From Candidatus Sericytochromatia bacterium (GTDB lineage: Bacteria; Cyanobacteriota; Sericytochromatia; S15B-MN24; UBA4093): a stretch of DNA of 27,725 bases. The translations under genes and the position numbers were made by a program. Under the pieces are notes generated by a model. The model was not told the DNA's origin, made no database searches, and saw only the letters and a list, made by a program, of their open reading frames with translations. Of the stretch, positions 1 through 17,394 are shown piece by piece (the stretch's first letter is position 1; each line of letters begins with the position of its first letter). Where the stretch lies: the NCBI GenBank assembly GCA_036676495.1, contig JAKFCT010000085.1, forward strand, positions 1-27,725. Direction: 5' to 3'.

Positions 1-542
1 CTCTCATTAACGCCGGGGCCTGCAGAGTCGACGCAAACGATGCCGCTCGCCGTACCTTGAGACCAATCCAGCCCGATCCCGAAATGCTTGTCCTTTGCCC
101 ATAGACCGATCATGAATGGCTCCTTGCCTTCTGCTCGCTCTACGACAACGAGAACGTCATATTCCTCAGGCGGGCCGTATTCCAACGGCAGAACCGAAGG
201 CGTAGCTACGGTCGAAGAAACAGCTCGGAGAATGCCAGCGGCGAATCTCCACTCTCCGCCCCTAGCGTCGCGTTTTGGATTCGCTCGGAGAAGCAGATCG
301 ATGGCTGGAAGCGGTTTTTTCGTGAACGTCGCGCCGATGAGAGGCGCGGCGGGCGGATCGACGGTGATCCGGATCACGTCCGCCTTGGGCACCTTCAGTT
401 TCTGGCCATCGACGGAGACGATCTCCAACTGATCTCCGGCCTGCCCAAGCGACTTCCACCGGATCGACGTTCCGTTGGAGAGTACGATCTCGTCTGCGTG
501 GACGGCAGCCACGAGAAGGAACACGAGGAGAAGGCTCTTCAT
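1..542 (-). CDS. Secreted protein with a signal peptide (partial, runs off the window; missing from the ORF track)
   Basis: Manual translation from ATG 542 gives MKSLLLVFLLVAAVHA|DEIVLSNGTSIRW...IDLLLRANPKRDARGGEWRF...LPLEYGPPEEYDVLVVVERAEG..., open to base 1. The ATG overlaps the upstream TGA (ATGA). The PPEEYD-type domain resembles beta-sandwich domains I recall from Planctomycetota proteins (recollection, not searched). Confidence 0.8.
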   Translation of the reverse strand, partial: MKSLLLVFLLVAAVHADEIVLSNGTSIRWKSLGQAGDQLEIVSVDGQKLKVPKADVIRITVDPPAAPLIGATFTKKPLPAIDLLLRANPKRDARGGEWRFAAGILRAVSSTVATPSVLPLEYGPPEEYDVLVVVERAEGKEPFMIGLWAKDKHFGIGLDWSQGTASGIVCVDSAGPGVNE

Positions 543-1219
543 CGCGGGTCTCCTGAAGAAAGAGGATCCGGGCATCGGATGCCCAAGGCGGCGCAATGGC
601 GAAGCGCCTCGTCTTGCCACACATGTCCCCGGCGGATCGCGATCGTATAGGGGCATGGGCTGAGGCCGGAGATGACCGACAAATGGACTTGTTCCAGGTC
701 CCCGGTCTCGCAGAGCTCGAATTCCCAGGGCGTTCTCCGCTTCTGTACCCGTTCCATCAGGTAAGTCCTTCGAACAAGCGACGCCTGTAGAGAGAACCGG
801 TATGCGGTTCCGGGATCGTGCGGGCCCCAGGGCATCCCATCCATAGAGCGTGACGGAGGCGGTACCGGAGTCAAACGGAGGTACTGGACACGTTTGTCCG
901 AGAAGGCCTCCTGGGCGGCCCGCATCAGGAAATCGGTATCCCAGCGGGCGAGCGCGAAGTAATCCTCCATGAGAACGAGAACGAGGTCTGACGAGATCGC
1001 CTCGAGCGCCCGTGCGGCCGCGTGTCCCCAACCGATATCGGTTCCCGTCGTGACCACCCGCAGCCCTGGAATCTCCGCCCGGGTCTCGTTGGCCACGAGG
1101 ATCAGCGGCCACGGCCGATCCGGCCAGAACCGTTCGAGCAACCCGGCAAACGGCTTCCATGCGTCGTTATACCGGTCGCACGAAAAGGCGACGACGCACA
1201 CGGAAGGAACGGTGGTCAC
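539..1219 (-). CDS. Glycosyltransferase-like protein (GT-A fold)
   Basis: GTG start at 1219 after AGGTGA RBS. Motifs SCDRYNDAWKPF...FWPD, VLVLMEDYF (DxD-like), YLRLTP, YRFSLQA and TPWEFE are typical of GT-like genes in polysaccharide loci. Lies next to fcl. Confidence 0.7.
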   Translation of the reverse strand: MTTVPSVCVVAFSCDRYNDAWKPFAGLLERFWPDRPWPLILVANETRAEIPGLRVVTTGTDIGWGHAAARALEAISSDLVLVLMEDYFALARWDTDFLMRAAQEAFSDKRVQYLRLTPVPPPSRSMDGMPWGPHDPGTAYRFSLQASLVRRTYLMERVQKRRTPWEFELCETGDLEQVHLSVISGLSPCPYTIAIRRGHVWQDEALRHCAALGIRCPDPLSSGDPR

Positions 1220-1223
1220 GGGA

Positions 1224-2177
1224 TCACCTGAGCTCTTGGACAAGGTCCTTGCCCTGCGCGAGCCACCAGTCGACGGTTTTCCGCAGGCCTTCTTCGAGGC
1301 CAACCGACGGCGTCCACGCAAGGATATCCTTCGCGCGGCTTCCGTCGATGGCGCGTCTTGGCTGGCCGTCGGGTTTTTGGGGGTCCCAGAAGAGAGCCCC
1401 CTGGAACCCGACCAGCGACGCAATGATCGACGCGAGGTTTTCGATCGTGATCTCCTCGGAGCCGGGGAGATTGATGGCTCCCTCGTAATCCAGGCCGCCG
1501 ACCGCCCTGGCAATGGCCTCGGCCGCATCATCGACGTAGAGGAAACTCCTGGTCGCCTTGCCGGTGCCCCAGAGAGTGACGCTCTTCCGACCTGCCTGTG
1601 CCGCCTCGGAGATCCGCCGGATGAGAGCCGGGATCACATGAGACGTCCGCGCGTCGAAGTTGTCTCCGATGCCATACAGATTGCAAGGCACGAGATACGC
1701 ATACTTGAGGCCGCGCCGGGCCCGGTAGGCGGCGCACATGACCAGGAGGGATCTCTTGGCCACGCCATAGGGGGCGTTCGTTTCCTCCGGATAGCCATTC
1801 CAGAGATCTTCTTCCCGAAACGGAACCGGGCAGTGCTTCGGGTAGGAACAGACTGTTCCGACAGCGACCACACGCGCGCCGGCGCTCGCGGCGGCCTCGA
1901 TCACGTTCATGCCCATGCGCATGTTGTCGGTGAAGAAGTGGTCTGGATGTTCCTGATTCGCTCCGATGCCTCCGACCCGCGCGGCGAGGTGGACCGCCAC
2001 TTCGGGCCTCGATTCCAGGAATGCCCGATAGGCCTCCGCCTTGTCCCTCAGGTCATAGCCGAGGCTCCGGCTGACGGGATATACCCGGGCGCCGGCCGCA
2101 TCGAGAATCGCGGTCAGCCGTTTTCCGAGAAACCCGGTCGCGCCGGTCACGAGAACCTTGAAGTCCTTGATCGTCAC
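1224..2177 (-). CDS. fcl: GDP-L-fucose synthase (extended SDR epimerase/reductase)
   Basis: VLVTGATGFLG Rossmann motif, HLAARVGGIGAN, CSYPK, YPEETNAPYGVAK (YxxxK), NLYG..DNFD..SHVIPALIRR, WGTG..TRSFLYVDDAA, KPDGQPRR. GTG start at 2177 overlaps the upstream TGA. Confidence 0.95.
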   Translation of the reverse strand: MTIKDFKVLVTGATGFLGKRLTAILDAAGARVYPVSRSLGYDLRDKAEAYRAFLESRPEVAVHLAARVGGIGANQEHPDHFFTDNMRMGMNVIEAAASAGARVVAVGTVCSYPKHCPVPFREEDLWNGYPEETNAPYGVAKRSLLVMCAAYRARRGLKYAYLVPCNLYGIGDNFDARTSHVIPALIRRISEAAQAGRKSVTLWGTGKATRSFLYVDDAAEAIARAVGGLDYEGAINLPGSEEITIENLASIIASLVGFQGALFWDPQKPDGQPRRAIDGSRAKDILAWTPSVGLEEGLRKTVDWWLAQGKDLVQELR

Positions 2178-2524
2178 ACATCTAGCCCCTGAGAAATCCG
2201 TTCCGCCGAAACATGGAGCAACCATGTCGCTCCCGCCGCCACAAAGGCATCGACGCCCCATGCGATTCCAGGAATGACGTTCGGCCAGACGAGAAGGCAC
2301 GGAGACAAGCCCTTGATCGACAAGGCCAGACCCGCCCACAAAGCGATGCACGGAGGACAGCGTACGAGGGCGGCCAGAGGTTTCAAAAAGACCAACCAGC
2401 GCAATCGCGACAGCCGATCCAGGGGGCGCTGAAGAAGAAACTGGCCGGCCTTCAGAACGCCGACCACGGTGCCAATGCCATAGGTGGCCAGGATGAAGAC
2501 GGAAAGACCGGCGGCGATTTCCAT
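2174..2524 (-). CDS. Small multi-TM membrane protein with CPPC motif (DUF1360-like)
   Basis: MEIAAGLSVFILATYG...LVRCPPCIALWAG, with three hydrophobic segments. ATG lies 1 nt after the upstream TAA. Confidence 0.7.
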   Translation of the reverse strand: MEIAAGLSVFILATYGIGTVVGVLKAGQFLLQRPLDRLSRLRWLVFLKPLAALVRCPPCIALWAGLALSIKGLSPCLLVWPNVIPGIAWGVDAFVAAGATWLLHVSAERISQGLDV

Positions 2525-2525
2525 C

Positions 2526-2903
2526 TTATTTCTGCTGCTGCCCTTCACGAAGCTTAGAAAAATAGTCCGCGAGATCGAACTTCTCGTCGCCCTTGGGTCG
2601 GACGATGGTCGCCGCATTGAGCGGCATGGGAACGCCGACCCATTCGGCGAGTTTTTTCGTGGTCGAGGCGACGGCCAAGCCTATCGGGATCTTCGCCACC
2701 AGAACCTGTTCTTCGCGGTCGTAGATCTCGTATGCCGTGATCTGGGGGTAGAGGAGCTGGACGAGGTGCGCCACGGTCACGACGGCCGATAGCGCATTCG
2801 GGACTTCGATGTCGAAAAGGAACGGCTTCGGCGCCGCGGTGGACCAGAGAACGACGCGGTAAGGCCGCACGGGGATGTTATGGGCTTCGTCCGCGCCGTC
2901 CAT
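2526..2903 (-). CDS. Hypothetical protein
   Basis: 125-aa ORF with globular composition, tightly packed between neighbours. Confidence 0.7.
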   Translation of the reverse strand: MDGADEAHNIPVRPYRVVLWSTAAPKPFLFDIEVPNALSAVVTVAHLVQLLYPQITAYEIYDREEQVLVAKIPIGLAVASTTKKLAEWVGVPMPLNAATIVRPKGDEKFDLADYFSKLREGQQQK

Positions 2904-2904
2904 C

Positions 2905-3420
2905 TCAGACCCCGAGATTCTTCAGCGCCTCGGAAAGCTGACGGGCAAAACCGCCGGTCACCTGGAAGGGAAAGCCGAACATCCGGAGCGTCATCACCGG
3001 AGGCCCGTTATCCTGGTAGTAGTCCATGTCGAGGATTGGGCCCCAGGGCGTATCGATCCGGGTGATCTGATCGCTCTGTTTCGGGACACGCTCGGTCGAA
3101 AGGACCTCGAAATATTCTGCCGGATGCGCCTTGCAGAGATACTTTCCGGTCCTTCGATTCATCATCCAGAAACAGCACGGCCAGAGCGATAGATGAGGCT
3201 TTCCCTCGTGTTCGATCACCTCATGGACCATGAACTGGTTTGGCCAGCCCAGCGCGATCAGCCGGATCGGGGTGACGTGACTGAGCTTCCTGTTTTTCAC
3301 CGCGTCGAGACGGACGCCTACTTTCATCCTGGCGCGGAACGGGCCCTCCGATTCGGCGGGCGCCGGCCCCTGAGTCGCCGGGACAGGGTCACCGGGATGA
3401 TCCATTGCCCCCACCTCCAC
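2905..3420 (-). CDS. Hypothetical protein (WPCC...CKAH motif)
   Basis: 171-aa ORF packed in the operon. The start may be the later ATG (MDHPG) after GGAGGT. Confidence 0.65.
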   Translation of the reverse strand: MEVGAMDHPGDPVPATQGPAPAESEGPFRARMKVGVRLDAVKNRKLSHVTPIRLIALGWPNQFMVHEVIEHEGKPHLSLWPCCFWMMNRRTGKYLCKAHPAEYFEVLSTERVPKQSDQITRIDTPWGPILDMDYYQDNGPPVMTLRMFGFPFQVTGGFARQLSEALKNLGV

Positions 3421-3733
3421 GTCCGATGCCCGCCAGTCTCCGGATGCAGTGCTCGGGAGTCTCGTAGCCCCGGATCCTTCCCACGATCCAGGCTTTCAGG
3501 AATTTGGATATCCGGATGGTCGTCTTTTTGCCGCGACGGGCCAAAAGCATGCGGCCGGCGCGGATCGGATGTCCGATCTCTCCGTGACCGCGTTCCCGGA
3601 AGAGCCTGCGGAGCGTCGCATCGACGATTTCCCCCGGGCGCGCATGGCGGTTGATGAGCCGCCTCATCTCCTTCGTTACGGCGATCGTGGTATCTGGCCT
3701 CTCTAGACGCCGCCGCATCTCTTTTGTTGGCAT
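3389..3733 (-). CDS. Tandem ribbon-helix-helix-like DNA-binding protein
   Basis: Two repeats, TTIAVTKEMRRLI...GEIVDATLRRL and TTIRISKFLKAWI...YETPEHCIRRL, match the TTIxV/IS...E...RRL RHH/antitoxin pattern. First gene after a promoter. Confidence 0.65.
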   Translation of the reverse strand: MPTKEMRRRLERPDTTIAVTKEMRRLINRHARPGEIVDATLRRLFRERGHGEIGHPIRAGRMLLARRGKKTTIRISKFLKAWIVGRIRGYETPEHCIRRLAGIGRGGGGNGSSR

Positions 3734-3745
3734 CAGCGCATATCC

Positions 3746-3774
3746 AATCTACACGAGGCTATGGGTGTTGTCAA
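3746..3774 (-). promoter_or_regulatory. Sigma70-type promoter for the RHH-fcl-GT operon
   Basis: TTGACA-17 nt-TAGATT on the minus strand in an AT-richer intergenic gap. Confidence 0.7.
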
Positions 3775-3782
3775 GCGTCCGA

Positions 3783-4700
3783 TCAGCTTGACGACCAGGC
3801 GACGAGGGCCATGGCGGCAAGGCCCGCCACGACCAAAAGCGCATAATCCTGAGCCGTCGGGATGCTTTCCCCGATCTCCTTGGCAAGAGCGCTCATAAAG
3901 GCTGCGCTCGGAGAACGGAGGCCCACGCCGGCATCCGAGAGAATGATCCAACGCCGGCGGATCTCGTCCTCTTCCTCCTGGAGCCTGCCGAGTTCACCTG
4001 CAGTAAGATCCGGCATGGCCTTGACGCGATCGATGGCCGCGAGCCATTTTCCGGCATCCGCGCGCCAGGATTCCGCCTGTGGAAGGACAAAGAGGGGAAG
4101 CGTTAGATCGTAGAGGGACGGGTTCTCGATCAGGCGTCCAACATCCATATCCGAAAGTACGGGACCGGAGCCGGACAAACGCAGTTTGAGTTCGGACCAT
4201 CGCCCTGCCAAACTGTCGTTGGCCAGCCGGCGAAGCCCTCGAGACATTTCATCGGCCGACGCAAGTTCCTGGAGCGCCCCATCGGCCGTGGTGTCGGAAG
4301 GCCTGAGAAGCGAGAGGATGCCGCCCGCGGCAAGCCCAAAACCCGAGACGAGCCCGACGATGTTCCATTTTGGAGGAAGGAAACCCGTCGCCACGAAGGA
4401 AAGGCCGCTGGCGGCGAAAAAACCGACCGCTTTCGCCACATTCCCGGTATCGGTCCCGATCTTGGAATCCTGTGACTGGCCCAGATGAGGCCGGAGACCC
4501 ATCGTCCGTGAAACGGAGCCTGTAGGAAGAACCCGGCTATAGGGTCGACTTCCTAGAGTGAAGCCGCTTGCGGCCCAGATAAGTCCGTCGGCGGCCACGC
4601 CAGGCCAATTCCAGAGCCTGCCATCGGCCAGTCTACGGAGCTTTCCAGAAACAGGATGACCGATGCCTTGAGCGCCTTCGCTCTCCGGCAGGATGGTCAT
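3783..4700 (-). CDS. Putative virion membrane protein (LGQ leader, internal TM hairpin, C-terminal TM)
   Basis: ...RPHLGQSQD, hydrophobic segments AVGFFAASGLSFVATG and WNIVGLVSGFGLAAGGILSLL, C-terminal YALLVVAGLAAMALVAW. Confidence 0.7.
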   Translation of the reverse strand: MTILPESEGAQGIGHPVSGKLRRLADGRLWNWPGVAADGLIWAASGFTLGSRPYSRVLPTGSVSRTMGLRPHLGQSQDSKIGTDTGNVAKAVGFFAASGLSFVATGFLPPKWNIVGLVSGFGLAAGGILSLLRPSDTTADGALQELASADEMSRGLRRLANDSLAGRWSELKLRLSGSGPVLSDMDVGRLIENPSLYDLTLPLFVLPQAESWRADAGKWLAAIDRVKAMPDLTAGELGRLQEEEDEIRRRWIILSDAGVGLRSPSAAFMSALAKEIGESIPTAQDYALLVVAGLAAMALVAWSSS

Positions 4701-5692
4701 TCGGAGGACTCGTGAGGAGCCCCCCTTTCGTCGTAGACGACGTAACCGCCGTCCTCGCCAGGCGCGCGCGTCCCCCCATCATCGAGCGCGTGCTGGACCG
4801 CGTCCCCGGTTCAGCCGAAGGGACCTGCGGTTCTGCATGCCCCCCCGGTCGCCGGCCCCCAGTAGTCGACCCAGAAGGATTCTGCAAAACCGCTCGACGG
4901 AGGCGTTCCAGGAGGCGGAGGCGATCCGCAAGGTTCCCATACGACGATCGTTTTCGTCGGGCGATCGCAGTCGGACGGATCCAGGATCTGCCATCCCGAA
5001 GCGAGATCGACCGCGAGGCCCTCACGGCCTTCGACCTCTACCCGAAATGTCTCCTTTCCAAGGCAGAGATTCGCCCGAGCGCCGCGTCCCGGATCGACGA
5101 CGGCTCCCCACCAATACCGTCCTGCCCTAGGAAGGCCAGGGACGACGACGCGCTCCACGATCTTCCCTTTCGCCGTGTGATCTCCAAGCCTGGCACCGCA
5201 GCCGATCTTGAAAGGCTCCGGCCTCTCGCCCTGCAGCCTCATGAGGAGAGGTTTGCCGAAGATGATCCCGAGGCTCACGATATAGGCGGGAATCGAAAGC
5301 CAAGGGAGCGCGAGAAAGGTTCCGGCGATGGCCGCGCCGGCGGAGACGACGAGCGTCGTTTTTACCGCCGAAAGCTTTTCGTCACGCGCCCCGATCAAGC
5401 ATTCCTGGAGATCGAAGAGAGCCAAAAGCCCATCCCTCGGGATCGAAATGGACCCGGCCCCCCGGTGTCGCTCGATGGCCTGGGTCATCGCGCCGACCCG
5501 ATCAAGGATCGGTTGCCAGTCCCCAGGAGGGCAATAGGCGTGGAACTCTATCGGGTTGTCATTGGCGAACCCGATGACATCCTCGACCGCACGGACGACG
5601 AGCTCGCCCTCTTCGGCGGAAATCTGGATCGTCTGTCCAGGCGCCGGAGACGGCGCGAGAACCGGGCCCTGTCCAAGGAACGCGACTGCCAT
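4697..5692 (-). CDS. Putative virion membrane protein with in-frame TGA at 4811-4813 (candidate Sec/readthrough); 4811..5692 if the TGA is a true stop
   Basis: Starts MAVAFLGQGP and has a TM hairpin and Cys-containing C-terminal part. After ...CRTAGPFG-TGA the frame continues TGDAVQHALDDGGTRAPGEDGGYVVYDERGAPHESSE to a TGA at 4697-4699 that overlaps the next ATG (4700). Confidence 0.7.
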
Positions 5693-5693
5693 C

Positions 5694-5825
5694 CTACCGC
5701 TTCTTCCGTTTCCCCTGGAAGACGCAGGTGCCCTTGACCCGTTTGCCCGAACGCATGTGGCTTTTCCGCCAGAATCGTCCCGGCCGGCACTTCCGGCCGC
5801 CGAGCTCAAGGAGCGCGTCGGCCAT
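5694..5825 (-). CDS. Small basic Arg/Lys/Cys-rich protein (possible nucleic-acid-binding core protein)
   Basis: Manual translation MADALLELGGRKCRPGRFWRKSHMRSGKRVKGTCVFQGKRKKR, with a strong GGAGGAGGT RBS. Fills the gap exactly. Confidence 0.7.
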   Translation of the reverse strand: MADALLELGGRKCRPGRFWRKSHMRSGKRVKGTCVFQGKRKKR

Positions 5826-5828
5826 CGT

Positions 5829-6092
5829 TCACCTCCTCCTCGTGGGGCTCCGTGAACCGACCTCGATCACCGTCTCCGGATGGTGCCTTTGTCCGATACC
5901 GAGGTATTTCAGGGGACACGAGATCGGCTCGACGAGCGGATCCCCGCGCTCCTTTCGGAACTTGACTCTGCGATCGGTTCCGACCTCGGCGATCCGTCCG
6001 TCGCCGAGCTTCTTCCTGAGGACGGCTCCGCGCCCGGGTTTGCGGTAGCAATGCCCGGGCGAAAGCTCGCTCAGCCGCGCGAGCTGTCTCAC
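5829..6092 (-). CDS. Hypothetical basic protein
   Basis: GTG start 2 nt after the upstream TAA, with GAGG RBS: MRQLARLSELSPGHCYRK... Confidence 0.6.
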   Translation of the reverse strand: MRQLARLSELSPGHCYRKPGRGAVLRKKLGDGRIAEVGTDRRVKFRKERGDPLVEPISCPLKYLGIGQRHHPETVIEVGSRSPTRRR

Positions 6093-6094
6093 GT

Positions 6095-6349
6095 TTACTG
6101 CCTCGTGAGCGCCGAAAAATCGTTCCAGGCCCGGATGCCCGCCATAAGCGCGACCAGCCATCCGACGGTCCGCCAGCCCCCCCGGAAGCTGAGTCCGGCC
6201 GTGACGCCGAGGGCGGTAGCGAATCCGTTCGAGATCAGTCCGACGACGCGGTTGTCGAGCACGCTCGACTGCCCGAGGATCGGTCCGCGGTATCCGAGAT
6301 TCGGCCGTCTCTGGATGATCGGCATGCCCATCCGCGTAACCATGTTCAT
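6095..6349 (-). CDS. Small 2-TM membrane protein with LG/LGQ leader
   Basis: MNMVTRMGMPIIQRRPNLGYRGPILGQSS... followed by two hydrophobic helices. ATGA-coupled to the upstream gene. Confidence 0.7.
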   Translation of the reverse strand: MNMVTRMGMPIIQRRPNLGYRGPILGQSSVLDNRVVGLISNGFATALGVTAGLSFRGGWRTVGWLVALMAGIRAWNDFSALTRQ

Positions 6350-6657
6350 CGCTTCTTCCTCCTCGCCGAGTCCCGGGTTCCGAGATCGGCAACCGACGCG
6401 TTCATGCAGTCCGTCAAAGAACAAGCCGGCGTTTCCCGGATCACCAGGCGGCGCTTCTTTCCAGCTCCAGCCAGGGCACCGGGAGCTACGAAGTAGAAAC
6501 GGTTGCCCCGCCTCACCGCCGCGACCGAGGCGCGGGAGGCGCCCGCAAGATCCGCGACGATGATCCGGTCCCCCACAAGTTCGCTCCTGGCGATCCGGAG
6601 CGGCCCGTCCGGCCGCTTCATTCCCTCCAGGGCTCAGGCATCGACCTTGATTTTCAT
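6346..6657 (-). CDS. Hypothetical protein with in-frame TGA at 6634-6636 (candidate Sec/readthrough)
   Basis: ATG 6657 overlaps the upstream stop (ATGA) and reads MKIKVDA-TGA-ALEGMKRPDGPLRIA...PACSLTDC. The downstream ATG 6621 has GGAGG only 2 nt away, which is poor spacing. Confidence 0.65.
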
Positions 6658-7028
6658 GCCCATCGGCCTCCTTCCAGCGCGCGACCCGTTTCCCGGGCGA
6701 TCCTCAAACTTGACAGCATCGCCTCGGCCGCGACGTACGTCTCCTCGGCGCGCTCGATGGCAAGGGCCGCCTCATCGAAGACCGCGGCCGTCTTTTCCGC
6801 GCCCAGGAGGTCGACCAGCGCCTCGGCTTGTCTGGCGATCCCCTCGGCCCTTTTCCTGGCGCCAACAAGCTTTGCGTGGGCCCGTTCCCGTTGGGCCAGG
6901 ACGGTTTCCGACGGGTGATCGACGGGAGGCGGTTGGGGCGTGAACGGGAGCCTCACGACCTCTTCCTGACCGAGAAGAACTCTCGGCCCGGAGAGCCGCG
7001 AAAGCCCTGTCCACCGTCTGGATGCCAT
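6654..7028 (-). CDS. Helical/coiled-coil protein with LGQ leader
   Basis: MASRRWTGLSRLSGPRVLLGQEE..., GGAGG RBS, Ala/Glu/Arg-rich helices. Confidence 0.75.
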   Translation of the reverse strand: MASRRWTGLSRLSGPRVLLGQEEVVRLPFTPQPPPVDHPSETVLAQRERAHAKLVGARKRAEGIARQAEALVDLLGAEKTAAVFDEAALAIERAEETYVAAEAMLSSLRIARETGRALEGGRWA

Positions 7029-7036
7029 CCGGCCTC

Positions 7037-7819
7037 CTAAAACGCAATCCCGACGACGATCACTCCTACCGCAAGCGCGGCGATCCCTATCAGCGCGAAC
7101 GATTTACGCCGCTTCGACGAGAGACCATCCGCGCATGCCGTCACGAGATCGGTCGCATGGATGTCTCGGACCGTGGCCTGGACCAGATCGGTCTCGGGCC
7201 GCGCAAGCTCGTCGGCGAGTCTGGCCCGGAAGGAACGCGCATCGGCAAGGACGAGGGGATCGATCGCGAGTCCGCAGGCCTCTTTTCGTTCTAGGTCGCT
7301 TGCCTCGGCAACCTTGGCGATGGATGAATCCAGAGCCTCGAGTACGGCCTCGGCTTCGGGCCTGGCGAAATCGACGGAGGGACCCGGGGCGGGGCCGGCC
7401 TGAGTTCCGCCAGGGGGCGGCGGCATCTCTTCTCTCGGCGGTTCTGCAGGCCCTTCGTCCTGGCCCAGATGATAGGCTCCGTAAGAGCCCATCCGGAGCG
7501 GAACCCAGGCGCGGCTGGACGCGTCAAAAGCCGTTCCGGCGCGGAGGGCCGCGTCGCCTCCCCTCAACTGACTTGACATCCGAAGCACTTGAGCGGGTGC
7601 CTGGGTTTCGCGGCCGGAGATGCCCTTGCGGGTTGCCTTGGGCCTTCCGAGCCTGACCTCTTCCGGATTCCTATCCATCTCGTTCCACGCCGCCGGCCTG
7701 GAGCGCGTCACGCGCGGCATCATGCCCGCGCCGCCTCAACCCAGTCCGGGTTCTTCTTTCTCCGCGCCCTCCGGGCGCGGACCGAGCGGCATCGACTTTC
7801 CTCAACCCAGGGCGCTCAT
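7037..7819 (-). CDS. Tail-anchored putative virion protein with two in-frame TGA codons (7802-7804, 7736-7738)
   Basis: GAGGAGG RBS, then ATG 7819: MSALG-TGA-GKSMPLGPRPEGAEKEEPGLG-TGA-GGAGMMPRV..., in frame with the 7037..7723 ORF. Contains YHLGQDEG, a two-Cys helical domain and C-terminal TM FALIGIAALAVGVIVVGIAF. Confidence 0.7.
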
Positions 7820-7832
7820 CGGGCCTCCTCGG

Positions 7833-8210
7833 CTACAAGATCTGCCGGGCGATCGAAACGAGTCCGCCCGCCAGCGATACGGCGCCGGCGAGCGACTGCC
7901 ATGGCCTTGATCCCTCCGAAGCGTCGAGAGCCGCGAGTCGTTCCGTCACGCGGCCCTCCGCCATCCGCACGAGGGACTCGAGCCTTTCCATGCGGCCGAG
8001 ATCGGCCTCTCGCGCCCGAACCCCAAGATGCAGGATCCGCTCAAGCGACCCCGTTCCCAGGAGGAGCCTTGCCTCCAGGGATGCGACCTCAAGCCCGAGC
8101 TGGGCCGCAGTCTCGGGTTCGCTTTCCCCGAGCTCCGCAAGGGCCCTCCCGGAGCGCCCGAGCAGGTTGGCCTGCTCGGCCAGGAATCTTCCGGCAAGCA
8201 TTTCATCCAC
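7833..8210 (-). CDS. Helical protein with C-terminal TM anchor
   Basis: Leu/Glu/Arg helices ending in PWQSLAGAVSLAGGLVSIARQIL. Confidence 0.7.
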   Translation of the reverse strand: MDEMLAGRFLAEQANLLGRSGRALAELGESEPETAAQLGLEVASLEARLLLGTGSLERILHLGVRAREADLGRMERLESLVRMAEGRVTERLAALDASEGSRPWQSLAGAVSLAGGLVSIARQIL

Positions 8211-8217
8211 GATCGGA

Positions 8218-8595
8218 TCACCACTCGGTCTGCTGGACGTCCGTCACGCGCGTGCCGGGCGGAAACGTGAGTTCGACGTTGTCGATCATCTCCTCGCCGT
8301 CCTCGGTCACGCCCTTGACGTCGATCCTGCACTTCCGATGGACCGCCCCGAGCGCCGGCTGCGGTCTCGCGGGGGGAGCCAAAGGAGCCGCAGGCGCGGG
8401 CATGGGCACCGGAGGCGCCACCGGTCTCGGCAACTGGCCCCGGACGAGTTTTCCGAGTTTCGATGGACCCGCGCCGCCGCCGTCGCCGAGCTGGATGGCC
8501 ATTCCCAGTTGCTGGCTCCGAGGATCCATCTGGACCGGGATCGTCTTCGATCCCTTCGGCGAGAACTTCGGCGCGGCAAAGACGTCCTTTTCCAT
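8218..8595 (-). CDS. Putative structural protein (multiple LG motifs, Pro-rich linker, small beta domain)
   Basis: QQLGMAIQLGDG..SKLGK..PALGAV, then CRIDVKGVTEDGEEMIDNVELTFPPGTRV. AGGAG RBS. Confidence 0.75.
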   Translation of the reverse strand: MEKDVFAAPKFSPKGSKTIPVQMDPRSQQLGMAIQLGDGGGAGPSKLGKLVRGQLPRPVAPPVPMPAPAAPLAPPARPQPALGAVHRKCRIDVKGVTEDGEEMIDNVELTFPPGTRVTDVQQTEW

Positions 8596-8610
8596 GACCT
8601 GTCTCCTATC

Positions 8611-10389
8611 CTATGAGACGATTATACCAGCCGCCACGAGGGTCGCAAGAAGTGCCGCGCCGGCGGGCGCGCCGATTCCAGAAAGCCTTGATGCGACCGG
8701 CGGTACCTCAGGGATCGCCCAATCGCGCGTCCTGTCTTCGTCGATGGGCGTTCCGTCCGGGCCCAGAGCGCGTCCGGTCTCGGGATCGCGAATCGCCCCC
8801 GTTGGCTCGCCGGTCCTCGGATCCAGGATCGCCTGGGTCTCAGGATCGAAGACGAATCCGGTCCTCGGATCGACTTCAAGGCTCGTCGGCCGTCCGTTCC
8901 GGAGCACCGCCCCGGTCGTCGGATCGATGGAAAGGACATTCCCGGTCACGGCGGCGCTCCTGGCGAGTTCCTCCTCGGCCGCGCGATAAAGCGCATCGAG
9001 GAGGAGTTGGTCCGTGCACCACAGGAGGAACGCCACGACGTCGTTCGGAAGATCCCTCATTCCGAGGGCGATTTCCTTGAATTCCTCCGCGGAGCGGGCC
9101 CCGACCGCGTTGATCGACCCCACCAGGAGCCGTATGGCGAAGACGAGCGCGGCGCTTCCAGCGGACTGGAGCGTCGCGAAATCGGCCGCTCCGGAGGAGA
9201 GGACGCCCGATCCCGCGTCGCCGGCGATCGCGTTGACGGCCGTCGGAATGGCCTGCTGGGCCACGCCTGCGACCCTCGGATCCGCATCGCGGGCGAGACG
9301 GGCCACGATCGCGGACAAGCCGGCCGAAATGGCAAGATCGATGCCCGGCTGGCCGCCGCTGAGGACCCCGTCGGCCAGTGCGTTCCCCCCCGCTTGGATC
9401 TCGGCAGAGCGGACTCCAAGATTCCGGTAGGCGTACGTGGCGAGATCGACGATCGAGTTCCCGATGCCCGTCGCTCCGGCGATCGGGCCAAGCATGAAGG
9501 AGACCGCCAGTCCCATGGTCGACATGGCCCTCGCCATCCTCGTGACCTCGCGGAGGCGTTTTCCGAGCTTATGATCGATGCAGTCGATGATCGTCGCGAT
9601 ATTGACGAGATAGCGCGCGGCCAGTTCCGTGCGGATCGCGCGGTCCGTCCGTGGGAAAAAATCGCTCATGTCCGGCACATAGATCCTGAAGTTCGCAAGG
9701 GAGAGCGGAGCGCCATCCTTTCCGCGCCAGACCGGGGTCCCGAACGCGCAACGCCGGAACCAGTCGGTATCCTCGATGTCCGGAAATGGGATCTCATCGA
9801 AGACAGCCAGGGCCTGCTCATAATTTGTGATGAGGGCAGGCCAGTCCCGAGGCAGGATAACGGGATCGGCAAGAGCCCAGGAGAGTTCTCCCGCCCAATG
9901 CCGCAAAAGCCGTGGATCGCGGGGCCGAAAGTTCTCGACGGCCGCATGAGCCTGGTCCGCGGCGAAACTCGAAGGGCCTCCCCATGCAGCCTCGGTTTGC
10001 GCCAGGACGTCCGAGAAATAGGCCCTTCTCTCGGCGACCTCGCAGACGACCGAAGCGATGCCTGGCGGGCAAACGATGAGGGTGACGGTTCGGGGTCCGC
10101 CCGGCATGACGTCTTTGGACTGGCTGCCCGGAATCTCGGCCGAGATCCGGATGATCGAGGCGGGAGGAAGGGGACCGATATCGGTCACCCAGCGTCCGTC
10201 GGTTCCCGCTTGGCCGGCCGATGCCGCGACGGGCGCCAGCCAGCCGCGGATCGGGTCGAACGGAACCACGTCCGCCCTGACCCCGACTCCGCCAAAAGGG
10301 GCCAGATCGTCCGCCCTGAGAACAAGGACCTCCACGCGCGTGGGAGGGAAGGCCGTGCCTGCAGCCTGTCCAAGGGCGGAGAATCTCAT
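8611..10389 (-). CDS. Large putative virion protein (LGQ leader, hydrophobic middle region, DPxTG repeats, C-terminal TM)
   Basis: MRFSALGQAA..., Gly/Ala-rich hydrophobic helices, five DPxT(G/Q) repeats and C-terminal AALLATLVAAGIIVS. Start position uncertain. Confidence 0.75.
   Translation of the reverse strand: MRFSALGQAAGTAFPPTRVEVLVLRADDLAPFGGVGVRADVVPFDPIRGWLAPVAASAGQAGTDGRWVTDIGPLPPASIIRISAEIPGSQSKDVMPGGPRTVTLIVCPPGIASVVCEVAERRAYFSDVLAQTEAAWGGPSSFAADQAHAAVENFRPRDPRLLRHWAGELSWALADPVILPRDWPALITNYEQALAVFDEIPFPDIEDTDWFRRCAFGTPVWRGKDGAPLSLANFRIYVPDMSDFFPRTDRAIRTELAARYLVNIATIIDCIDHKLGKRLREVTRMARAMSTMGLAVSFMLGPIAGATGIGNSIVDLATYAYRNLGVRSAEIQAGGNALADGVLSGGQPGIDLAISAGLSAIVARLARDADPRVAGVAQQAIPTAVNAIAGDAGSGVLSSGAADFATLQSAGSAALVFAIRLLVGSINAVGARSAEEFKEIALGMRDLPNDVVAFLLWCTDQLLLDALYRAAEEELARSAAVTGNVLSIDPTTGAVLRNGRPTSLEVDPRTGFVFDPETQAILDPRTGEPTGAIRDPETGRALGPDGTPIDEDRTRDWAIPEVPPVASRLSGIGAPAGAALLATLVAAGIIVS
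8765..8928 (-). repeat. Protein-level DPxTG repeats (IDPTTG, VDPRTG, FDPETQ, LDPRTG, RDPETG)
   Basis: Five degenerate copies are visible in the translation and as ggatc-containing DNA repeats. Confidence 0.8.
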
Positions 10390-10424
10390 GGGCGTACGGG
10401 CAAACGGAAGGATACCCCAGGAGC

Positions 10425-10553
10425 CTATCGGCGACCCTTCTTCTTCTTGCAGCAGAGCCAGCGGGCCTTCTTGCCCCGACCGACCCTCTTGCACTTCCGG
10501 CCCTTCATCCTCTTCTTCGAGAACTTGCAGGGCGGCATCCGCTTCCTCGCCAT
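10425..10553 (-). CDS. Protamine-like Lys/Arg/Cys-rich peptide
   Basis: MARKRMPPCKFSKKRMKGRKCKRVGRGKKARWLCCKKKKGRR with GGAGGT RBS. Confidence 0.75.
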   Translation of the reverse strand: MARKRMPPCKFSKKRMKGRKCKRVGRGKKARWLCCKKKKGRR

Positions 10554-10570
10554 GGAAACCTCCAAAGAAT

Positions 10571-11107
10571 CTACAGGATCTGCGTCAGGAGGATCGCCGC
10601 CACCACGGCCACGCCGGCGCCGACGATCGGGAGGGTGAGGTCGGGTCCCGGAGCTCCCGGGACCGTGATGGTGCCCGGCGGAGGGAGTTGCCCGACTTCC
10701 CGTTCCGAAGCCCTCACCCGGTTCTTGAAATCCTCGTTGATCTTCTCGAGTTCCGTCACCCGGTTCTGCCGGCGCTCGACGGCATACGCGCCGTAGTTCG
10801 GGGGCGTGTAGGCCTCGACATCGGTCTGGATGTCGGAGACCACCGACCGGTACCGGTAGGCCGGGCTCGTCGGGTTGTTCGGGGAGCCCAGCCAGTCGAA
10901 GATCGCGCGCCGGGCCGAGACGCTCGCCAGGATGTTCGTCCTGCGCACGAGGTCGTCGTAGGCGGCGGTGGCGGCCTTCGCTCGCTGGTACCATTCGAGA
11001 TCGGTGGCGCCGAGCGTGTAGTTCCGCATCCTGGCTCCCAGGACGGGACTCGCAGGACGGAAATAGTTGTTGAACCCGGGACCCGCGAGGCGTGCTCCAT
11101 GGAACAT
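10571..11107 (-). CDS. Tail-anchored putative virion protein (YTLGAT leader)
   Basis: AGGAGG RBS, PVLGARMRNYTLGATD, helical body, Pro linker and C-terminal LPIVGAGVAVVAAILL. Confidence 0.8.
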   Translation of the reverse strand: MFHGARLAGPGFNNYFRPASPVLGARMRNYTLGATDLEWYQRAKAATAAYDDLVRRTNILASVSARRAIFDWLGSPNNPTSPAYRYRSVVSDIQTDVEAYTPPNYGAYAVERRQNRVTELEKINEDFKNRVRASEREVGQLPPPGTITVPGAPGPDLTLPIVGAGVAVVAAILLTQIL

Positions 11108-11125
11108 ATTGATCCTCCTGCGATC

Positions 11126-11554
11126 CTATCTCCGGGCGATGAAATATACCGCCGCGCCGACGCCGACGGCGGCCACGGCGCCCACGATGAGCCAGGGGAA
11201 GCCGCCGGCCTGGGGAGGACGGACGGGAGGAGCGGCCCCGCCAGCCGCCTCGTGTCTTCGAACGGATTCCCGGACGTCCTCGTAGAGGTTCTTCAGGCAC
11301 CTTCCTCCCTGGTAGAGTCCGATCACGCCTCCCTCGCCGAGTTTGCGCTGGCACTCCTCGTACCTGGCCCGATACTGCCCCATCAATCCTTCCGGCAGCC
11401 TCCCCAGGAGGTCGATGATTCCTGAAGAGAGGCCTTCGACGTCGATATCCTCGAGGAAGTCCTGGCCGAGATAGGGCGTGAAGGGATTCCCGAGTCTCGG
11501 TCCTGAGAACGGACCGGTCCCCAAACCCGGGCGCGATAGAAGACGCATCATCAT
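11126..11554 (-). CDS. Tail-anchored putative virion protein (LG..LG..LGQ leader)
   Basis: MMMRLLSRPGLGTGPFSGPRLGNPFTPYLGQDF..., two Cys and C-terminal GGFPWLIVGAVAAVGVGAAVYFIARR. ATGA-coupled. Confidence 0.8.
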   Translation of the reverse strand: MMMRLLSRPGLGTGPFSGPRLGNPFTPYLGQDFLEDIDVEGLSSGIIDLLGRLPEGLMGQYRARYEECQRKLGEGGVIGLYQGGRCLKNLYEDVRESVRRHEAAGGAAPPVRPPQAGGFPWLIVGAVAAVGVGAAVYFIARR

Positions 11555-12081
11555 GCGGTTTCCTCCTTGCGGGGCACTGCGTGGCGATGGTTGAAACCGC
11601 CGAGCCCGCGCCGGCCATCGGGAAGGACGGGTACGGGCGGCGCCGAAAGCTCGCTCATGTTCTCGAGGCCCGTGACGATGCGCTCGAGAGTGGCCTCGTC
11701 GAGTCGTTTTTCCAGACGTTCGCCGAGCTTTCTCCAAGTCTCAAGCACCGGCTTCACGTCCTTTTCCCAGTATTCAGGAAGTTTGTCGTCGACCAGTTTC
11801 TCGATCAGCGATTCACTACGCTCGACGCTTTCGACGCTCCGGAATCCAGATTCCCGGGAAGGGACGAGAAAGAGATAGACGAAGGCGTAGATCCAGATGG
11901 CCGCGACGGCGGGGATCGTATAGGCGCCGTTAAAGACCTGGAGCGCGGCGTGCACGGCCTGCGGCAGTCCCGTATAGAGGAGAATCCCGGCAGGACCGAC
12001 GACGAAAGCCGATACCGCCACCAGTCTCCCATGAAGGCGGGTCGTCTTCCGGTACCATTCCCGGATGGGTTGTCCGGTCAT
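11551..12081 (-). CDS. 2-TM membrane protein with C-terminal coiled coil
   Basis: MTGQPIREW...VAVSAFVVGPAGILLY...IPAVAAIWIYAFVYLFLVP, followed by a charged helix. TGATG-coupled. Confidence 0.75.
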   Translation of the reverse strand: MTGQPIREWYRKTTRLHGRLVAVSAFVVGPAGILLYTGLPQAVHAALQVFNGAYTIPAVAAIWIYAFVYLFLVPSRESGFRSVESVERSESLIEKLVDDKLPEYWEKDVKPVLETWRKLGERLEKRLDEATLERIVTGLENMSELSAPPVPVLPDGRRGLGGFNHRHAVPRKEETA

Positions 12082-12593
12082 CAGAACCTCACCATGGTCG
12101 CCGCGAGTCCCCAAGCTTGCTCGCGCTCCTCGAAGTCCCATCCGACCCAGGGACCGATCGTGACGTCGATGAGGGCCACGATCCGCTTGCCCAGGTAGAT
12201 CTCGGCGACCTGGGATCCGGCGCCGGCCTGGAGGATCCACCATCTGGCCCACGGAACCTTGAACCTGAGGATCTCGATCCCCACGGTCGGCGTCATCCTG
12301 GGTTCGGGCTTGATCTCGGCCGCGAGCCCCCCATGGATCGATGGGAACGAAAAGAGCGCCTCGGCCGCTGGATCCTCTGGCCTGTAAACGCCTTTTTCGT
12401 CGACGCTCCCGGGTTTGCCTGCGCCATGCTCGATGCCCCTATCCCAGCCCCATCGGAACTCGAATGGAGCTCCGGGATCGCCGCCGAAATCGAGAGCCCT
12501 GAAAAACGCGCATCCTGAAAGAACAGGGGCGACCAGCATCAGGAAAACTGCACGCCTGATGCCTTGGCCGCGCCAGCCAGCTTTTCGAGCCAT
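12081..12593 (-). CDS. Lipoprotein with beta-strand-rich, outer-membrane-like C-terminus
   Basis: AAGGAG RBS, signal peptide MARKAGWRGQGIRRAVFLMLVAPVLSG|C (lipobox), amphipathic strands and terminal Phe (...ATMVRF). Confidence 0.7.
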   Translation of the reverse strand: MARKAGWRGQGIRRAVFLMLVAPVLSGCAFFRALDFGGDPGAPFEFRWGWDRGIEHGAGKPGSVDEKGVYRPEDPAAEALFSFPSIHGGLAAEIKPEPRMTPTVGIEILRFKVPWARWWILQAGAGSQVAEIYLGKRIVALIDVTIGPWVGWDFEEREQAWGLAATMVRF

Positions 12594-12829
12594 TCGGCCA
12601 GAGTCTCCTTTTTTCGCCGCGCTTTCCACGCCTGTCCTACGACCCAAAGACGCCTCAGAATGAGGCCGATTTCCTCGGCCTCGGCCTCCGTCACCCTCGC
12701 ATCCCGAAGACGGAGAAGCATGCGGTTCCAGCCCACGACCAACGCTTCCCGGAAGACATGGTCGTCCGTCCCCGGGACCACGGGGCCCGGAAAGAACCCG
12801 GTCACGCAATCCTTGAAAAAGAACGTCAA
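12539..12829 (-). CDS. Hypothetical protein (start uncertain)
   Basis: (M)TFFFKDCVTGFFPG...EWLEKLAGAAKASGVQFS fills the gap. TTG start assumed; overlaps the lipoprotein signal sequence. Confidence 0.45.
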   Translation of the reverse strand: MTFFFKDCVTGFFPGPVVPGTDDHVFREALVVGWNRMLLRLRDARVTEAEAEEIGLILRRLWVVGQAWKARRKKETLAEWLEKLAGAAKASGVQFS

Positions 12830-16773: not shown

Positions 16774-17394
16774 CTACGATGCCGCAATCAGCGCAAGCGC
16801 CCCCGCCCCTATCGCGAGCGGGACTCCGATCAGAAGCGCGGCCGAAAGGCCCCCTTCGTCCGCGCCGTTCCCGTCCGACCTGACATCGGCCCGATCCCTC
16901 GGAAGCATCCTTTCGACCTGGTCCCTGGCCTGCGGAGGGGCATTGTCGAGGATCCTCTGCCGGGCCTTGGAAACCGTGTTTTTCCGGTCCTCCTCTCCGA
17001 AGTTCGCTTCCAAGGCGTCGGAGAGCCCCTCGAAGAGGTTCGATATTTTTTCGAGAGCCAGGTGCGGGATCTCGATGGCGAACTTGAGGATCGCGCCGGC
17101 GGCGAGGACGGCCTGCGCCGCGAGCTCCCCGAGAAGGGGGATCTCCCTTAAAAGCGCCGAGACGTTCGAGAAGACGACGTCGACGCCGGAGACGAGGAGT
17201 TCGGTCGGCACGGAAACGATATCGGCGATGACTCCGACCACGGTCCCGAGGGCGTCGGCCAGGAACTGCGCGGCCGACGAAAGGGCGTCGCCCAAGGCCG
17301 GTCGGCGCTGGGCGAGAAACGGCCTCTGGCGGGCGGACGTCCCGGAACGGCCGAGTTCGAGGAGCTCGGTCGCTCCAAGCGTGTAGGCCCTCAC
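16774..17394 (-). CDS. Tail-anchored putative virion protein (YTLGAT leader)
   Basis: GTGA-coupled start MRAYTLGATE..RPALGDAL, amphipathic helices and C-terminal LLIGVPLAIGAGALALIAAS. Confidence 0.75.
   Translation of the reverse strand: MRAYTLGATELLELGRSGTSARQRPFLAQRRPALGDALSSAAQFLADALGTVVGVIADIVSVPTELLVSGVDVVFSNVSALLREIPLLGELAAQAVLAAGAILKFAIEIPHLALEKISNLFEGLSDALEANFGEEDRKNTVSKARQRILDNAPPQARDQVERMLPRDRADVRSDGNGADEGGLSAALLIGVPLAIGAGALALIAAS

Follow-up and report, generated by a model that had tools for sequence, protein, structure and literature searches.

In bacteria, selenocysteine (Sec) is inserted at an in-frame UGA with the help of SelB and of a hairpin, the bacterial selenocysteine insertion sequence (bSECIS), which lies inside the open reading frame (ORF), and the part of the 2026 selenoproteome review available to us (PMC13188914) models this hairpin as a stem of 4-16 bp with a loop of 3-9 nt, a G in loop positions 1-2, a distance of 16-37 nt from the UGA and a minimum free energy (MFE) of -7.5 kcal/mol or below. 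The same part lists small selenoproteins with CxU or CxxU motifs, for example the rhodanese-like form 3 'CxU' and the ferredoxin-thioredoxin reductase 'CxU', and it contains neither the word 'phage' nor the word 'virus'. In the titles and abstracts that literature searches listed, no phage-encoded selenoprotein gene is reported, only predicted phage tRNA-Sec genes, which according to the accessible text of one study occur in three of seven huge phage genomes (PMC10747093). Here we analyze a stretch of 27,725 nt (contig JAKFCT010000085.1 of assembly GCA_036676495.1, Candidatus Sericytochromatia bacterium; hereafter the window), in which codon 8 of a small gene on the minus strand is a UGA (6636-6634). 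In our judgment this UGA probably encodes Sec, in a member of a new family of small proteins carried by a huge phage-like element.

The ATG of the small gene (6657-6655) and the TGA stop (6656-6654) with which an upstream 124-aa ORF ends overlap as an ATGA, and the frame then reads MKIKVDA, the TGA, ALEG, ATG 6621-6619 (Met13; MKRPDG...) and MKRPDGPLRIAR, until it closes at TGA 6348-6346; this stop codon overlaps in turn with the ATG (6349-6347) that opens the next ORF. The coupled start MKIKVDA-UGA-ALEGMKRP had been described in an annotation made from the letters alone (the first-pass annotation), and the coordinates bear it out. A start placed exactly seven codons before the Cys/Sec column is also found in most full-length relatives of the protein (MKxxxCxC). 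The C-x4-C motif that had been pointed out in the same annotation is present (PACSLTDC), but it is specific to the subfamily, most relatives reading ADSLTD[C/G/A], and is not a feature of the family.

The in-frame TGA is conserved. Three related metagenome loci (L020, L021 and L022) share the gene order of window positions 292-12677 at 75-78% nucleotide identity; L020 and L021 are identical at the site, and L022 is closely similar to L021. The small protein is 77-78% identical in these loci, and the TGA was kept in all three, in the context [A/G]TG AAA ATH AAG GTC GAW GCC TGA GCC CTG GAG GGM ATG. Contigs assembled from three more runs, which belong to other studies (X5, X6 and X8), likewise had the site unchanged, and the X5 contig showed 37 differences in 899 nt (96% identical). 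As measured against L021, the 60 nt at 6658-6599 were 93.3% identical, compared with a mean of 71%, and shared the top rank of the 12.7-kb block (top 0.13% of windows). The three to four substitutions found in the 36 nt before ATG 6621 were either ATG>GTG or third-position changes of the read-through frame, and the small gene otherwise evolves as coding sequence, with 10, 8 and 33 differences at codon positions 1, 2 and 3, respectively. The TGA at codon 8 is therefore no assembly error. No RNA dataset that holds this stretch was listed.

A profile search of 1.84 billion representatives, in which the read-through alignment served as the query, brought up small relatives in which the N-terminal segment is plain protein sequence (MKFQVTPCAWAGMTRP, MKIKICSCEIPALMRP, MKIRMCSCLWSGLVRP and MRWRLCQCEVNGLVRP). 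A second profile search defined a family of 157 proteins at E <= 1e-3, and no functional name was attached to any of the 120 family matches listed. Once the window's own entries and long repeat proteins had been left out, 136 distinct family proteins were examined. The TGA column is covered by 83 of them, and all 83 have Cys at this position and none another residue (C-x-C in 78, x-x-C in 3, and an insertion of one residue in 2); 41 others are called from a start 1-6 residues past the column, and the remaining 12 start deeper. Among 56 aligned full-length members Cys8 is invariant (56/56) and the first Cys of the motif is conserved in at least 90%, with Asp taking the place of this first Cys in the window subfamily. 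A hidden Markov model (HMM) was then built from these 56 Cys-type members alone, with the window-type sequences left out. Residues 1-101 of the read-through product fell on profile positions 1-93 with no N-terminal gap and with residue 8 on the Cys, and scored 75.5 bits with X at position 8 and 82.5 bits with C, compared with 68.1 bits for the form that begins at Met13. The seven upstream codons and ALEG are worth 7.4 bits on this model, a value of limited power for so short an extension (only seven codons), and none of 200 shuffled extensions reached 75.5 bits (maximum 73.2). Therefore, ATG 6657 stands at the start of the family and the TGA on its invariant cysteine. The syntenic ortholog in a further locus, L033, has TGC at the position of the UGA. 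This locus lies on an IMG/VR contig (record G401, 266,490 nt; viral according to IMG/VR, CheckV completeness 92%), and its flanking ORFs mostly read as counterparts of those of the window, in the same order (translations compared by eye; tblastn for two).

Past the UGA the RNA can fold into the hairpin AGCGGCC-GGACG-GGCCGCT, which starts 16 nt after the UGA and has its loop 23 nt from it, so that this core with a G-starting loop is found where the first-pass annotation had placed it (6617-6599). The hairpin agrees with the bSECIS model on four of four constraints, as these are given in the accessible part of PMC13188914 (5-nt loop GGACG, 7 bp, 23 nt, -14.8 kcal/mol). Against dinucleotide shuffles, the 54 nt past the UGA gave z = -2.72 (2 of 200 folded as well) and the 21-nt hairpin core z = -3.96 (0 of 200). 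When the amino acids were kept and the synonymous codons were resampled at the codon usage of the block, the 54-nt fold had -30.0 kcal/mol compared with -17.1 +/- 3.4 kcal/mol (z = -3.8; 0.05% of 2000), a repetition of this codon-preserving control yielded no sequence as stable in 1000, and the same 54 nt were in the top 0.5% of the sliding 54-nt windows of the block. The codon-preserving and dinucleotide z values were -3.81 and -2.72 in the window gene and -2.30 and -2.18 in that of L021, both with TGA, and the codon-preserving value was -3.15 in the TGA gene of L022; in the TGC gene of L033 they were +0.01 and -0.06. Hence, the excess stability of the hairpin is present in the TGA-type genes only and not in the Cys-type ortholog. 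The core was kept in L021 and L022, and the changes seen in the stem, among the about three distinct sequences available, were one G-C to G-U (L021, L022) and one pair-breaking G to A (X5). The first-pass annotation had named a hairpin no more stable or conserved than shuffled controls as the outcome that would speak against its proposal, and the z values of the TGA-type genes and the retention of the core point the other way. A search of the whole window with Rfam gave no family at the gathering threshold, and at the site only chance-level matches (E 1.5 and 6.3).

A second site emerged when ORFs of the 266-kb record G401 were aligned to the window with stop codons read through (24 alignments). 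The TGA at 4813-4811 closes a '332-aa' ORF, and the aligned residue in G401 is Cys: the window reads ...CRTAGPFG-TGA-TGDAVQHALDDGGTRAPGEDGGYVVYDERGAPHESSE-TGA and its counterpart ...IRRAGPFG-C-PMDTRDHAIDDGGITKKGQDGDYVLLNMEGEEVPVPKS. This TGA was kept in L021 and L022, and the corresponding codon of G401 is TGT. The 37 codons past the second TGA contain no indel, 26 of the 37 residues are identical, and the differences number 4, 8 and 16 by codon position (P = 0.008, third-position excess). All seven database homologs of the gene (58-100% identity) end at ...AGPFG. No start codon was seen at the head of the 37-codon segment, and therefore re-initiation cannot explain its conservation. When the whole window was checked for stops aligned to Cys in the 24 alignments, only these two sites were obtained, and TGA serves as the terminator of five of nine genes of the block, both recoded genes included. 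Recoding of UGA site by site, at Cys positions, is what marks Sec. With the same Cys-to-UGA replacement in a second gene of the module, the proposed Sec decoding would imply that the element replicates in a Sec-decoding host. The features discussed here are collected in the table.

Table. Coordinates of the small gene, its proposed signals and neighbours, and the second in-frame UGA in the window
Feature	Position	Strand	Remarks
Small read-through gene MKIKVDA-U-ALEGMKRPDG...RRKKR, 103 residues + stop	6346..6657	-	Unnamed family of ~90-130 aa with N-terminal C-x-C motif
In-frame UGA, codon 8, proposed Sec codon	6634..6636	-	Kept in related loci; aligns with invariant Cys8
Proposed true start codon, ATGA overlap	6655..6657	-	GTGA in L022; 7 codons ahead of the Cys/Sec column
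GGAGG Shine-Dalgarno sequence, 9 nt 5' of ATG 6657	6667..6671	-	Kept in L020-L022
Internal GGAGG 6628-6624, 2 nt, AUG 6621-6619 (Met13)	6619..6628	-	Start used by gene callers; possible re-initiation site if the UGA were a true stop
Upstream 124-aa ORF, coupled via ATGA, without family match	6654..7028	-	Ortholog in the corresponding position in L021 and L033
Downstream 84-aa ORF, ATG 6349, ATGA-coupled, probably a membrane protein	6095..6349	-	Downstream ORF of L033 has a similar hydrophobic tail, by eye
Core SECIS-like hairpin, 7-bp stem 6617-6611/6605-6599, loop GGACG 6610-6606	6599..6617	-	-14.8 kcal/mol
Extended lower stem (CCUGG/CCAGG and others), this window only	6586..6633	-	MFE fold
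Second module gene ...AGPFG-U-TGDAVQHALDDGG..., 293 + 1 + 37 codons from ATG 5692	4697..5692	-	Final TGA overlaps the ATG of the next gene
Second in-frame UGA	4811..4813	-	Falls on Cys (TGT) in the G401 ortholog

We propose that translation of the small gene would start at AUG 6657, with a GGAGG 9 nt upstream and with ATGA coupling to the preceding gene, and that the ribosome would reach the UGA after seven codons. The GC-rich hairpin 16 nt on, whose 5-nt loop starts with G-G and lies 23 nt from the UGA, would act as a bacterial SECIS and recruit SelB with Sec-tRNA(Sec), and because SelB would be recruited at the UGA, Sec would be placed at the position of the relatives' invariant cysteine, the second Cys of the N-terminal C-x-C. 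The gene belongs to a conserved module on a very large element of virus-like or mobile character. The product would be a 103-residue protein of an undescribed family, and the invariant C-x-C suggests that its Cys/Sec site is probably a redox or metal-binding site. The claim of the first-pass annotation that the UGA encodes Sec by means of a SECIS is thereby supported by the conserved TGA, by its pairing with Cys in 83 of 83 proteins and by a hairpin in the TGA-type genes. A wider reading, to which we give even odds, is that a lineage of huge (>200 kb) virus-like elements of soil and groundwater encodes its own selenoproteins, at least two of them in one conserved module, that the protein families of both candidates are known only from such elements, and that their propagation depends on, or manipulates, the Sec decoding of the host. 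In the boldest version of this reading the element would supply its own opal-decoding tRNA, which would explain a second UGA without a canonical SECIS.

Several results weigh against Sec decoding at this locus. The bin that holds the contig (contig C85; bin G000, 4.14 Mb, 106 contigs, 91.9% complete) reached 20 bits for selA, 110 bits for selB (cut-off 242) and 53 bits for selD (cut-off 125); the SelB wing domain was absent from it, its best Rfam match for tRNA-Sec was a tRNA-Leu, and none of its 52 tRNAs was SeC or had a UCA anticodon. None of the three genomes of the genus had selA or selB above the cut-off, and the window has no tRNA gene. As for the site itself, the TGA-type DNA is all from one lineage, and the stop codon at the Cys column of the 41 clipped family members is presumed from where their called starts lie. 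The 72-nt span delineated by the first-pass annotation was unremarkable (z = -1.50, with 16 of 200 dinucleotide shuffles folding as well), the tests of the hairpin against chance being mixed but mostly positive. The outer CCUGG/CCAGG pairs that this annotation had included are indeed part of the MFE fold, but they are broken in L021 and L022, where the 3' arm is CAAGA, and hence the outer stem is not conserved. It had also suggested a look for covariation among homologs, and no compensatory change was found in the hairpin among the about three distinct sequences. At the second UGA, simple enumeration gave no hairpin that fits the bSECIS model, and there was no excess stability (z = -1.25 to -1.6, compared with -1.7 in the Cys-type gene).

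The machinery objection depends on whether the contig belongs to the bin. In the order, SelA and SelB were each above the cut-off in 18 of 27 genomes, and judged by these matches Sec use is common among the relatives of the bin. In its tetranucleotide use C85 deviates more than any other contig of the bin (first among 76 contigs of >= 8 kb; r = 0.94 compared with a median of 0.994), and a comparison with 26 genomes of the order gave no DNA match for its other half. It is also the only contig of the bin with broad similarity to G401, with 15 distinct ORFs matched along 1.2-26 kb, and the other bin contigs inspected (C15, C27 and C29) were matched mainly by G401 ORFs of the sugar-epimerase or glycosyltransferase type. 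C85 is thus probably a piece of a huge phage-like element that was binned wrongly, and because it is the most deviant contig and matches the 266-kb element, the missing Sec machinery in the bin and the genus is weakened as an objection.

Three other explanations of the first UGA were considered. The UGA could be a true stop, which we regard as unlikely: a bridging mini-ORF of seven codons would end 12 nt before AUG 6621, and re-initiation at Met13, helped by the GGAGG at 6628-6624 and perhaps modulated by the hairpin, would yield a 91-aa product that lacks the N-terminal Cys segment. In bacteria, re-initiation close to a point of termination is established, a GGAGG and an AUG do stand directly past the UGA, with the AUG 12 nt on, the glutamate codon that creates this GGAGG is specific to the subfamily, and the Sec machinery was not found in bin or genus, all of which count for this explanation and, in the case of the GGAGG and AUG, against Sec insertion. 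So do the gene calls, in which four of four close homologs start at MKR; a start of the homologs at the MKRPDG methionine had been named beforehand as adverse to the Sec proposal, and it holds for these called starts, but the DNA of all three related loci keeps the upstream frame, and distant relatives carry the Cys segment (83/83). Re-initiation was in fact favoured at first and was demoted because the Cys-type relatives appeared. It would discard a Cys that is invariant in 56 of 56 relatives, and it treats as a leader seven codons that are homologous, in register, to the N-terminus of the family and whose changes are start-preserving or at third positions. Furthermore, the GGAGG-to-AUG spacing of 2 nt is the shortest among 13 starts inspected, the excess hairpin stability is confined to TGA-type genes, and the Cys-to-TGA change of the second gene, with 37 conserved codons and no start codon, is not explained by re-initiation. 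An artefact or decay (an error of sequencing or assembly, or a pseudogene of recent origin) might be suspected where a short ORF on a metagenome-assembled contig has one early in-frame stop, but the recurrence of the same TGA in the three loci and in the contigs of three further runs, its position within the most conserved stretch of the block and the coding pattern of the rest of the gene (10, 8 and 33) leave this extremely improbable.

The UGA could also be decoded as sense by a route other than canonical SelB and SECIS, through an opal-decoding tRNA encoded elsewhere on the element (inserting Cys or Sec), through a tRNA(Sec)-like 'recoding with Cys', or through leaky near-cognate read-through aided by structure. 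Cys-inserting tRNA(Sec)-like systems exist, and the second UGA lacks a hairpin that conforms to the model. The 266-kb relative has 43 tRNA genes and a prfB-like gene, because of which such elements are taken to alter translation, and the predicted tRNA-Sec genes of huge phages mentioned above (PMC10747093) also count for this route. Nevertheless, we hold this route to be quite unlikely, given that a general suppressor would read through the TGA codons that end five of nine block genes, among them both recoded ones, that none of the 43 tRNAs of G401 has a UCA anticodon and the window has no tRNA gene, and that the hairpin of the first site fits the SECIS model in all four constraints. A genome-wide reassignment of TGA of the phage type (REASSIGNMENT) was rejected on related grounds, since TGA ends five of nine block genes, the 24 alignments contain only two in-frame TGAs, both on Cys, the window has no tRNA, and G401 has no UCA anticodon.

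The prfB-like (release-factor-2-like) gene of G401 (L049:8457-9407, minus strand) scored 369.5 bits, compared with a cut-off of 370, over profile positions 32-353, and one of the G401 tRNAs is odd, with a 4-nt anticodon call. The record also encodes an integrase, ligases, methyltransferases, a helicase, many glycosyltransferases and collagen-like 'tail fibre' matches. Its ORFs of >= 250 aa (105 scanned with PHROGs, 81 of them also with Pfam) yielded no capsid, portal or terminase, and therefore its viral nature rests on IMG/VR. By eye, the ORF downstream of the small gene in L033 (4351-4701) has at its end a hydrophobic tail similar to that of its window counterpart. The window itself gave weak matches to replication initiators and also matched one PHROG whose function is unknown. 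At 1227-2351 (minus strand) it carries a gene that resembles GDP-L-fucose synthase or a nucleotide-sugar epimerase (NCBIfam 263.8 bits, cut-off 500; phrog_540, 4.5e-67), to which several sugar-modifying genes of G401 are akin. A 597-aa ORF at 17394-19184 (minus strand) contains an intein (Hint) domain (Pfam PF14890, 9.4e-12; TIGR01445), and its extein matched no family in Pfam, PHROGs or NCBIfam. Two more 60-nt conservation peaks against L021 were seen on the minus strand at 3012-3071 (93.3%) and 3214-3273 (91.7%), in or near a 171-aa ORF (2905-3420). Another GC-rich hairpin, 7761-7781, reads CCGCGCCC-GGA-GGGCGCGG on the minus strand and lies between a 125-aa and a 228-aa ORF; in the ~100-nt intergenic stretch around it, positions 7753-7812 are 91.7% identical to L021, compared with the mean of 71%. 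No T-run follows this hairpin, which is hence no typical terminator. The GGA that its loop shares with the hairpin after the UGA, to which attention had been drawn earlier, exists as a likeness but is trivial.

The 91-aa form of the window protein and its neighbours had no match in Pfam, PHROGs or NCBIfam, none of six Cys-type members tested matched Pfam, and the NCBIfam selenoprotein models gave no relevant match among 30 family members (two unrelated ones, E 0.023 and 0.095). An AlphaFold model based on 87 sequences (pLDDT 81.9, pTM 0.71) consists of a short N-terminal helix around residue 8, where confidence is low (pLDDT 58), of a small beta-sheet formed by residues 20-59 and 71-75, and of a long C-terminal helix, which is basic. 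With this model, Foldseek retrieved nothing from PDB and BFVD at E <= 1e-3, VIA-align reached a best Z of 5.6 with no solved or viral predicted structure matching, and an Atlas search yielded no usable match. In P0012, P0013, P0016, P0024, P0037 and P0045 the basic C-terminal tail has a lone Cys in a Gly-rich context, and the contexts of C-terminal Cys residues in the family include GGCGG, QECGQ, GGCGA, GGCSP and RGCGK; it may be speculated that such a lone Cys could partner the N-terminal Cys or Sec.

As regards the distribution of the family, it was absent from 27 genomes of the order and 401 of the phylum outside the bin, which also speaks against C85 being part of the binned organism, and among 61 relative genomes the only match outside the bin was weak (E 0.005). 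A tblastn search of phage and plasmid collections (queries P0001, P0073, P0095 and P0142) gave no match, and scans of viral contigs gave no relative with A1 or A4, one contig with A5 and the same contig only with A6. Three loci (L023, L024 and L025) were rejected as family members, their heptapeptide matches being due to chance, and long repeat proteins that match residues 29-70 (P0018, P0023 and others) were set aside, because they share only a beta-hairpin-like motif of FG-GAP-type repeats.

If the Sec reading is correct, an undescribed family of 157 members would be defined by an invariant N-terminal Cys that is seemingly replaced by Sec in about a third of them, and a phage-like element would be on record as carrying selenoprotein genes. 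It would also follow that gene callers systematically clip such genes, as with the four of four close homologs of the small gene and the seven of seven homologs of the second gene that are truncated at the UGA, and the UGA signal could be used for annotating such elements and for predicting their hosts, which must decode Sec.

The locus can be compared with four described systems, insofar as the accessible parts of the cited sources describe them. Like the phages with reassigned stop codons (TAG=Gln, 'code 15', or TGA=Trp; PMC9523058), it has in-frame stops in phage genes that gene callers truncate, but here the 24 alignments show only two in-frame TGAs, both on Cys, TGA ends five of nine genes, and no suppressor tRNA was seen. 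With the bacterial genes that use a SECIS inside the ORF and SelB, for which E. coli fdhF is the prototype (model in PMC13188914), it shares an in-frame UGA at the Cys of homologs and a hairpin directly downstream in the coding sequence, with all values in the published ranges; it differs from them in that the UGA is only seven codons from the start, that the hairpin overlaps a Shine-Dalgarno-like GGAGG and an AUG, that bin and window searches tied no cognate selA, selB, selC or selD to the element, and that the genes lie on a huge virus-like element and not on a cellular chromosome. The small CxU and CxxU selenoproteins show the same usual redox or metal-Cys pattern, a C-x-C in which the second Cys would become Sec, but there is no sequence relationship to them, no solved structure matches the predicted fold, and the window subfamily has Asp for the first Cys. 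For the huge phages of PMC10747093 the published evidence consists of tRNA predictions and names no selenoprotein gene, whereas here there are candidate selenoprotein genes and no tRNA-Sec; what they have in common with the element described here is a phage-like genome of very large size, a rich set of tRNAs and a tie to Sec decoding.

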